Sequence record: PQ249395
Reading direction: 5' to 3' (one strand)
Source of the DNA: Escherichia phage Pu-Krd-SF1
Length of the DNA: 64,000 bases
The notes under the pieces were generated by a model. The model was not told the DNA's origin and ran no database searches. It saw nothing but the letters and a program-made list of their open reading frames with translations. The position numbers were made by a program, and so were the translations under genes. Positions 37,468 to 38,119 of the stretch are shown here, in pieces; within the stretch, counting starts at the first letter, position 1, and the number at the start of each line of letters is the position of its first letter.

Positions 37468-38119
37468 TTTAGAATCATTCTAGTAAATCCCAAAGATCTA
37501 CGCTATTTCTTTTTGACTTTTCTCGGTTAGATTCCCAAGTGATTATTTCTAAATTTTTTACGCTTGCTATAATTTCCGGCGGAATTAAATTATCAAATCC
37601 ATATTTGATAGATACTTTATGATCGAGTTGATAAGCACCTTCTACACCGCACACTCCTATTTTATCAGCATTCGGCCATTTTGACCAAATTTTTCTTATT
37701 TTAGCTGACTTAGTTATAGAATGAACTCTACTAGCATATAATGCAAACTCTTTTCTTTTACCAGTCCATCGAGGATGTTTATCGCCTCTTTGCCATGGTC
37801 TGCTTATTCCGGATTAAACTTCCGAATTTTTAATAGCAACTTGTTTAATGCTGCATTTTCTACACGCATGTGTGGGTGTTCTATTTAAAAGCTGAATGCT
37901 TCTACTAAATTTAATACCGCACAAATCACATTTAGCGTCAACTATTTTATTACTATTCTTTGGCATTAATTCTATTGGAACAGATACTGTATCATGATAT
38001 GATACTTCATATCCTAGAATTGCCGACCACATTTTTGAATGATTTCTTGGTTTTATTGTAACAAACTTAGAAATAATCACTTGTTTCCTCGAGAATAGGG
38101 GCCGAAGCCCCACAATCAA
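37466..38119 (-). mobile_element. Decaying HNH homing-endonuclease insertion between genes 18 and 19
   Basis: See pseudogene 37475..38032; flanked by gp18 terminator hairpin and a hairpin at 37450..37467. Confidence 0.5.
37475..38032 (-). pseudogene. HNH homing endonuclease interrupted by in-frame TAA (72-aa N-terminal ORF, then 112 sense codons without ATG)
   Basis: N-terminal part ...CDLCGIKF...HACRKC; after TAA 37814-37816 the same frame gives ...CGVEGAYQLDHKVSIKYGFDNLIPPEIIASVKNLEIITWESNREKS (HNH core) to TGA ~37475. Confidence 0.55.

Follow-up and report, generated by a model that had tools for sequence, protein, structure and literature searches.

A probable recently pseudogenised homing-endonuclease-type gene of the T6 ORF19.1 family between genes 18 (tail sheath) and 19 (tail tube) of Escherichia phage Pu-Krd-SF1

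The gene 18–gene 19 interval and its insert

The window analysed here is the whole 64,000-nt stretch of DNA, and all positions refer to it. Gene 18 and gene 19, which encode the tail sheath and tail tube proteins, are separated by 754 nt in the window as compared with 116 nt in T4. The 116-nt spacer was found in nine insert-free genomes (T4 and eight others) and defines a precise empty site. Alignment with the empty site of T4 placed an insert after the stop codon of gene 18 and ahead of that gene's terminator hairpin, and this insert carries its own GGGGCUUCGGCCCC hairpin, a Shine-Dalgarno sequence and an open reading frame. The features of the interval are listed below, with the basis of each assignment in brackets.

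38120 to 40099, minus strand: gene 18, tail sheath, 659 aa (open reading frame list; annotated as tail sheath in PQ759885 and T6); its stop codon TAA is at 38122-38120, and its 3' end adjoins the insert.
37476 to 38118, minus strand: insert relative to T4, 643 nt replacing 7 nt (ACGGTGC) (alignment with the T4 empty site).
38098 to 38111, minus strand: insert-borne GGGGCUUCGGCCCC hairpin with a UUCG tetraloop, upstream of the open reading frame (sequence and RNA fold).
38087 to 38090, minus strand: GAGG Shine-Dalgarno sequence, 6 nt before the GTG start (sequence).
37814 to 38080, minus strand: truncated ORF19.1 frame, GTG start, 88 codons, then TAA.
37853 to 37930, minus strand: CxxC...CxxC zinc-binding motif (C51, C54, C73 and C76) (homologue alignment).
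37814 to 37816, minus strand: premature ochre codon TAA at codon 89, with the mutated base, T, at 37816 (alignments and translations).
37478 to 37813, minus strand: post-stop segment, 112 sense codons (residues 90-201), linker and nuclease domain.
37475 to 37477, minus strand: original TGA stop of ORF19.1, its last base lying within T4-shared sequence.
37450 to 37468, minus strand: ancestral terminator-type hairpin of gene 18, AGGCCUGU-UUCG-ACAGGCC, which now follows the insert (T4 alignment).
37441 to 37448, minus strand: T4 late-promoter motif TATAAATA, upstream of gene 19, with a second copy at 37380-37387.
36874 to 37365, minus strand: gene 19, tail tube, 163 aa (open reading frame list and annotation).

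The whole interval is 100% identical to that of Escherichia phages Pu-Krd-SF5, SF6 and SF7, and 97.3-99.3% identical to that of about 60 other Tequatrovirus records, including T6. The first-pass annotation, which was made from the letters of the window, had taken the GGGGCUUCGGCCCC hairpin as the terminator of gene 18. This assignment was wrong, as the GGGGCUUCGGCCCC hairpin is borne by the insert and is common to two types of insert allele, the T6 type and the RB3 type; the T4-type terminator is the AGGCCUGUUUCG(G/A)CAGGCC element at 37468-37450. The latter hairpin, AGGCCUGUUUCGGCAGGCC, is the one found 3' of gene 18 in T4, and its position 37456 is A in the window and G in relatives. An Rfam scan of 37200-38300 returned one chance match below threshold, and no promoter or terminator pattern in the region scored above shuffled sequence.

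No TATAAATA late promoter lies between gene 18 and the start of the insert-borne frame, the nearest copy on the other side being upstream of gene 18 at 40128-40135, indicating that ORF19.1 must be read from gene 18 transcripts. [quoted passage not shown]

The first-pass annotation had read an ATG at 38032 as the start of a 72-codon frame ending at the TAA at 37816-37814. The frame is present as described, but its start was misplaced. A GTG at 38080-38078 stands 6 nt behind the GAGG sequence, and the annotators of T6 and Pu-Krd-SF5 in GenBank picked the same start. The residues that this start adds (IISKFV...) are kept at the N-terminus of all 38 aligned homologues, every one of which carries MIISK. 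With the GTG as the start, the truncated product is 88 aa and the intact protein 201 aa. The same frame stays open after the TAA for 112 sense codons, up to the TGA at 37477-37475, and a stop-free run of this length has a chance of about 6 × 10−5 at the local base composition, in agreement with the earlier judgement that it was improbable. The two CxxC pairs (C51/C54 at 37930-37919 and C73/C76 at 37864-37853) and the quoted HNH-type peptide CGVEGAYQLDHKVSIKYGFDNLIPPEIIASVKNLEIITWESNREKS were also found as described.

The truncated frame holds the complete N-terminal zinc-finger domain. Among the 38 homologues, C51, C54 and C73 are invariant and C76 is present in at least 90%. The N-terminal domain gave weak matches to DUF4379, a treble-clef zinc finger, and the N-terminal part matched the N-terminal part of phrog_12131, labelled "homing endonuclease", with an E value of 7 × 10−5. 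The T6 protein and both fragments of the window frame matched phrog_5104 (E values of 4.5 × 10−83 for T6, 8.6 × 10−25 for the pre-stop part and 1.9 × 10−52 for the post-stop part), a family labelled "unknown function".

Homology to T6 ORF19.1 extends over the full length and the two genes occupy the same genomic site, which places the interrupted gene in the T6 ORF19.1 family. The two loci share the GTG start, the hairpins and the stop codon, with 97.5% nucleotide identity over the 754-nt interval. They differ at codon 89, where T6 has CAA within an intact 201-codon frame and the window has TAA, and by three further amino-acid changes, each of which falls in the N-terminal part. Annotation of the T6 protein goes no further than ORF or hypothetical protein.

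A C-to-T transition at codon 89 of ORF19.1

The base at 37816 is C, giving CAA (Gln89), in all ten other alleles that were read. CAA stands opposite the TAA in T6 (two records), pSe_SNUABM_01, Pu-Krd-SF4, Ptacy1496, VEc74, fFiEco06 and JE01, and an intact 201-codon frame was found in each of the ten alleles translated (seven of the T6 type and three of the RB3 type). A 63-nt probe centred on codon 89 was further compared, by exact match, with 57 phage records holding the stretch. The TAA version matched exactly in three of them (Pu-Krd-SF5, SF6 and SF7), and the remaining 54 do not have it.

The ORF of Pu-Krd-SF4 differs from that of the window by one base only, at codon 89, indicating a single and recent C-to-T transition; the recent date is also indicated by the lack of decay in the rest of the ORF. 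The first-pass proposals that the TAA is a point substitution and that an endonuclease gene was recently inactivated by a nonsense mutation were therefore borne out by the alignments, with T6 ORF19.1 and about 54 other records as the intact orthologues. Among eight T6-type alleles, all 12 variable codons of the post-stop part vary synonymously, and the N-terminal part has nine codons with synonymous changes only and five with amino-acid changes. The purely synonymous variation after the stop indicates that purifying selection acted on the nuclease part up to the time of the mutation.

The window is 99.8% identical to SF5-7 over 24 kb and, being only 99.8% identical, represents a fourth, closely related genome. 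Two other candidates were considered and rejected in these comparisons. Pu-Krd-SF3 and SF4 are not sister genomes of the window, since they fall outside the 12 best-matching records over 24 kb and have only the local segment in common with it. Phage ECp13, with an annotated CDS of 120 aa, is not a second broken allele, since its ORF is intact from the GTG and the short CDS is an annotation artefact.

A sequencing or assembly error, by which the true base would be C and the gene intact, had been named in the first-pass annotation as an alternative. The difference is indeed a single base in otherwise identical alleles, and all carriers of the TAA come from one laboratory series (Pu-Krd). The T nevertheless occurs in SF5, SF6 and SF7, whose genomes differ in length and were deposited separately, and in the window, the fourth genome, while SF3 and SF4 of the same series have C. 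The site moreover lies outside homopolymers longer than 3 nt (GTTTAAT). With the T in four genomes and C in SF3 and SF4, an error at this position is extremely unlikely.

Programmed or suppressor-mediated readthrough, the other alternative named at first pass, would require that the TAA be decoded usefully, perhaps as glutamine, with the full-length nuclease still being made. The downstream frame is fully intact, and CAA to TAA is a change that a tRNA-Gln ochre suppressor could correct; classical genetics has described such suppressors in T4. A frame left open behind the stop is, however, expected anyway after a very recent mutation. The stop is not conserved, given the 54 of 57 records without the TAA version and the CAA in the ten alleles read. 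Its context is UAA-U, which is the most efficient terminator in E. coli, and the RNA fold around it is no better than that of shuffled sequence (z = 0.21). The tRNA cluster of Pu-Krd-SF5 holds eight tRNAs, none with a UUA anticodon and none of them tRNA-Gln, and there is no tRNA within the window. The isolation host was E. coli B, a non-suppressing strain. On these grounds, namely the unconserved stop, its context, the unremarkable RNA fold, the lack of a suppressor tRNA in the Pu-Krd-SF5 cluster and the host, readthrough has next to no likelihood.

Reinitiation behind the stop was also considered and rejected. The first in-frame start-like codon after the TAA is a GTG at 37654, where an AGGAG overlaps the start codon itself, and reinitiation is unlikely because this GTG lacks a usable Shine-Dalgarno spacing. 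A product started there would also lose helices that pack on the nuclease core. Translation should therefore end at codon 89, after the zinc-finger domain, leaving the nuclease domain unmade, and translation of the post-stop segment is not expected in this phage.

The remaining product of 88 aa could itself have been kept, as a nuclease-free, site-specific DNA binder such as a regulator or a target-site protector. The stop lies where the helix closing the N-terminal domain ends, which leaves the zinc-finger domain whole, and the start codon, the Shine-Dalgarno sequence and the hairpin are intact. Homing endonucleases with a second, regulatory DNA-binding role provide a precedent, as in the autorepression by I-TevI. 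Set against this, the allele is limited to one small clade, no second independent truncation at that point was seen in the ten other alleles inspected, and neither the 88-aa nor the 99-aa form of the truncated product had an exact match in a large assembly collection. A random nonsense mutation suffices without any extra assumption, and a functional truncation is very unlikely. Exact-pattern scans of IMG/VR matched neither the TAA version nor the CAA version, and so do not count for or against either.

The C-terminal domain as a probable divergent HNH nuclease

The first-pass annotation had assigned an HNH-type core to the post-stop segment and had named PF01844 and PF13392 as the families to be searched. 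No such family match was found for the segment in Pfam, NCBIfam or PDB sequence searches. A Pfam search with E values up to 1 gave no HNH match for either the T6 protein or the post-stop segment, none of the curated HNH models (PF01844, PF13391, PF13392, PF13395 and PF14279) was matched above threshold, and Pfam, NCBIfam and PADLOC returned no significant family for the intact protein or for either fragment. Pfam searches with the 38 homologues gave one match to HNH_4 (E value, 0.078) and otherwise weak zinc-finger matches. Among 144 wider relatives, two matched HNH_4 (best E value, 9.5 × 10−4) and two matched HNH (best E value, 2.4 × 10−3), all below the curated cut-offs. Sequence-profile searches of the PDB with two alignments found no HNH chain, only zinc-finger-type matches to the N-terminal part, and Foldseek searches against the PDB returned nothing below an E value of 0.25.

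The fold and the residues of the domain were then considered, as given by structure models and by invariant alignment columns.

37517 to 37633, minus strand: beta-beta-alpha-Me core, Y150-Q151-L-D153-H154 ... N176-L177 ... W182-x-x-N185-R186-x-K188 (invariant columns and AF2).

AF2 models were obtained for the whole intact protein (pLDDT 87.5) and for the post-stop segment of the window alone (pLDDT 85.4). Both models show a strand ending at D153-H154, a second strand from N176-L177 and a helix bearing N185, that is, the strand-strand-helix arrangement of a beta-beta-alpha catalytic core. The catalytic-type residues take the places expected in such a core, with Asp-His ending strand 1, an Asn on strand 2 and an Asn ligand on the helix. 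D153, H154, N176 and N185 are invariant in the 38 homologues and present in at least 90% of the 144 wider relatives. An hhalign comparison placed these four residues on D839, H840, N854 and N863 of SpCas9, respectively, at an E value of 0.095 that is not significant alone.

The best structural matches were nucleases of the Cas9/McrA/Gme-HNH type (D-H...N...N), with which the domain shares the core topology and the order of the catalytic-type residues. The domain of ORF19.1 differs from them by a 19-residue insertion, forming two short helices, between the two strands, by the lack of flanking CxxC zinc ligands and by scores below all curated sequence thresholds. Taken as fold and residues rather than sequence statistics alone, the evidence supports a model in which the post-stop segment belongs to the HNH/beta-beta-alpha-Me superfamily as a divergent member. 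The HNH label was therefore retained in this sense, despite the lack of a family match, on the evidence of fold and motif; as a match to PF01844 or PF13392, it did not stand. Nuclease activity of the intact ORF19.1 is predicted on this basis. A literature search found no paper on T6 ORF19.1. To our knowledge, no member of the ORF19.1 family is known to cut DNA or to home.

An exhaustive profile search recovered 6,191 representative proteins at E values up to 0.001. Some 6,000 representatives at 50% identity carry the C-terminal domain, for which Pfam has no family. Many of its relatives fuse the domain to NUMOD3, to resolvase-type and other HTH modules, to DUF7487 (Hef-like) and to DUF4379 modules, and module fusions of this kind are the typical build of modular homing endonucleases.

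Mobility pattern and comparison with known homing endonucleases

The insert is sporadic, being carried by about 57-68 of roughly 500 Tequatrovirus records, and its presence or absence varies among close relatives at one precise intergenic site. A dense polymorphic patch was found in the neighbouring conserved gene.

38165 to 38204, minus strand: dense polymorphic patch in gene 18, mostly synonymous (20-genome comparison).

Measured from the end of the gene 18 stop codon, the patch is 46-85 nt upstream; it holds 24 variable sites in 40 nt, with at least four haplotypes among the 20 genomes. The T6-type insert is always paired with one exact patch haplotype. This haplotype was found in 50 records, every checkable one of which carries the insert, and the identical insert and patch occur together in genomes whose distant flanks (outer gene 18 and gene 19) are mosaic. 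The patch is a candidate for the target, the immunity tract or the co-conversion tract of the endonuclease.

A second allele, of the RB3 type, is found at this same site. Its leader, first seven codons and nuclease-encoding 3' part are those of the T6 type, and the 390 nt in its middle, which specify the zinc-finger domain, show no relationship to the T6-type sequence at the DNA level. The protein thus follows a two-domain model in which a nuclease domain is joined to a variable DNA-binding module, present as T6-type and RB3-type cassettes. Homologues with 34-43% identity lie directly 3' of the tail-sheath gene in Serratia phage CHI14 (Winklervirus), Acinetobacter phage Mokit, Klebsiella phage Roth19 and Sinorhizobium phage phiM12. 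A relative also divides rnlA of Acinetobacter phage 133 into two genes. These features fit a family of homing endonucleases targeting the 3' region of gene 18, for which cleavage and homing are predicted. The constant position after gene 18 in distant genera could alternatively reflect a conserved accessory function, rather than pure selfishness.

Close parallels are the free-standing Mob HNH homing endonucleases of T4 (Wilson & Edgell 2009, PMC2790892; Edgell et al. 2010, PMC2988022). Like mobE and its kin, ORF19.1 is free-standing, sits in an intergenic slot between conserved genes, is sporadic in close relatives, has no promoter of its own, joins a nuclease to a DNA-binding part and is accompanied by a polymorphic patch in a neighbouring conserved gene (PMC2790892, PMC2988022). 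The HNH domain of the Mob proteins is N-terminal, whereas the nuclease domain of ORF19.1 is C-terminal, with no Pfam HNH match (HNH_3 included) and no detectable homology to Mob proteins. Lacking an N-terminal, Mob-homologous HNH domain, ORF19.1 falls outside the Mob family (mobA-E).

A precedent for the inactivated state is I-TevIII of T4, a defunct, intron-encoded endonuclease inactivated by a large deletion (PMC2988022). In both cases, the inactivated gene is still resident and intact orthologues exist in relatives (RB3 for I-TevIII; T6 and others here). The gene in the window is, by contrast, free-standing, and was interrupted by a single nonsense substitution with no other decay.

A link to Hef-like proteins (DUF7487) would run through the nuclease domain. 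Some relatives, P0046 and Acj133p227 of Acinetobacter phage 133 among them, join a DUF7487 N-terminal region to an ORF19.1-type nuclease domain, and Acj133p227 is annotated with 'some similarity to ORF19.1 of T6'. ORF19.1 itself, in contrast, has no DUF7487 match, its N-terminal part being a DUF4379-like zinc finger. Hef of phage U5 is reportedly a characterised endonuclease, an account attributed to Sandegren et al. in 2005.

We conclude with high confidence that the locus holds a free-standing homing-endonuclease-type gene of the T6 ORF19.1 family that was recently pseudogenised by the Q89-to-TAA change, with loss of its divergent HNH nuclease. The intact protein of 201 aa would combine the N-terminal four-cysteine zinc finger, presumed to serve in DNA recognition, with the C-terminal divergent HNH nuclease. 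By analogy with T4 mobE and the seg genes, this enzyme would, in co-infected cells, most likely nick or cut the allele that lacks the insert, within or close to the 3' end of gene 18, and recombinational repair would then copy the ORF19.1 gene into the cut genome. The C-to-T transition, turning codon 89 from CAA (Gln) into TAA in this phage lineage, would have put an end to such activity. Nonsense alleles can persist because loss of the nuclease costs the phage nothing, and the present allele may represent the degeneration phase of the homing-endonuclease life cycle.

A wider reading would join several of these observations: the C-terminal domain would form a distinct HNH clade of homing endonucleases that has followed the 3' end of gene 18 through the T4-like genera with an exchangeable zinc-finger cassette, and the 88-aa product would still bind the homing site as a protector or regulator. 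As a whole, this combination is very unlikely. On the preferred reading of a recent pseudogene, a single pseudogene should be annotated to cover both the 88-aa "hypothetical protein" recorded for Pu-Krd-SF5 and SF7 and the stretch 3' of it, which carries no annotation. GenBank has listed ORF19.1 since 1994, and most of the 241 phage records with a homologue still label it hypothetical; the present evidence supports calling it a divergent homing endonuclease of the HNH type. A candidate cleavage site should be sought at the 3' end of gene 18. Pu-Krd-SF4 and SF5-7, one base apart in the ORF and not close genome-wide, form a natural CAA/TAA pair that may serve as a control pair for homing crosses. 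The gene was already known from T6, and the locus described here would be a textbook case of a homing endonuclease gene just after its inactivation, pseudogenisation being an ordinary outcome for homing endonuclease elements.

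Two insert alleles and the flank of gene 18

The gene 18/19 insert circulates in Tequatrovirus in two allelic forms, one of the T6 type and one of the RB3 type. The alleles were compared using the insert of the window (37476-38118, minus strand) and the comparison loci L016 (601-1363), L017, and L018. Both types have the same leader hairpin, Shine-Dalgarno sequence, and first 7 codons, and they also share the final ~200 nt, where the nuclease domain is encoded. In the central ~390 nt, which code for the zinc-finger domain, their DNA sequences are unrelated. The module presumed to recognise DNA looks as if it had been swapped as a cassette.

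A dense and mostly synonymous polymorphic patch was found inside gene 18, and two small changes lie between the insert and gene 19:

38165-38204, minus strand, polymorphic patch in gene 18
37456, minus strand, G-to-A change in the hairpin 3' of the insert, AGGCCUGU-UUCG-ACAGGCC
37388-37391, minus strand, 2-nt AT insertion just 5' of TATAAATA (37380-37387)

The patch is located 46-85 nt ahead of the end of the gene 18 stop codon and contains 24 variable sites in 40 nt, with at least 4 haplotypes among 20 genomes. The haplotype linked to the T6-type insert was matched exactly in 50 records, and the insert was present in all of those that could be checked. The patch may be a tract of cleavage, immunity, or co-conversion.

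The change at 37456 converts the closing pair of the UUCG loop from U.G to U-A. Pu-Krd-SF4 and Ptacy1496 have the same translation as the window across this hairpin and probably also carry A at 37456, and G was found in the other alleles examined. The AT insertion (GGGATATATAAATA vs GGGATATAAATA) is shared by the window and Pu-Krd-SF4 and is absent from T4, T6, and pSe_SNUABM_01. It sits just 5' of TATAAATA, the late-promoter motif of gene 19, and the motif itself is intact.

The tRNA cluster of Pu-Krd-SF5

The tRNA cluster of Pu-Krd-SF5 lies outside the window:

L022:6513-7121 and 5198-5863, tRNA cluster of Pu-Krd-SF5

Its 8 tRNAs are Arg, Tyr, Met/Ile-type CAU, Thr, Ser, Pro, Gly, and Leu; no tRNA-Gln was found among them. 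A homing endonuclease gene is located between tRNA-Arg and tRNA-Tyr, and an annotated HNH endonuclease gene adjoins tRNA-Leu.

The ORF19.1 family, its labels and its genomic positions

The ORF19.1 gene is labelled inconsistently from one GenBank record to another: as "putative head morphogenesis protein" in T6 AP018814, SF2-1, and WL-3, "type II restriction endonuclease" in Roth17/19, "HNH endonuclease" in Ptacy1496 and Ursula, "homing endonuclease" in ADUt, "holin" in SYGD1, and hypothetical in further records. The annotation in ECp13 covers only the last 120 codons of an intact frame.

The C-terminal domain family is large, with 6,191 representatives at E <= 0.001 and 1,676 at E <= 1e-10, and has no Pfam family. 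The modules preceding this domain include NUMOD3, HTH_23/38/7, Sigma70_r4, DUF7487, and DUF4379.

In Acinetobacter phage 133, the RNA ligase gene rnlA is divided into rnlA-A and rnlA-B by a relative that combines a DUF7487/Hef-like N-terminal region with the same C-terminal nuclease domain. In GenBank, this relative already carries the note "some similarity to ORF19.1 of Enterobacteria phage T6". The entries below are this relative and, from four distant phages, homologues located directly 3' of the tail-sheath gene (34-43% identity):

L027:1300-2121, Acinetobacter phage 133, relative
L023:2501-3184, Serratia CHI14, homologue
L024:2501-3085, Acinetobacter Mokit, homologue
L025:2501-3121, Klebsiella Roth19, homologue
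L026:2501-3073, Sinorhizobium phiM12, homologue

Because these four homologues directly follow the tail-sheath gene, and the next gene in phiM12 is not gene 19, it is the 3' end of gene 18 that the ORF19.1 family tracks from genus to genus.
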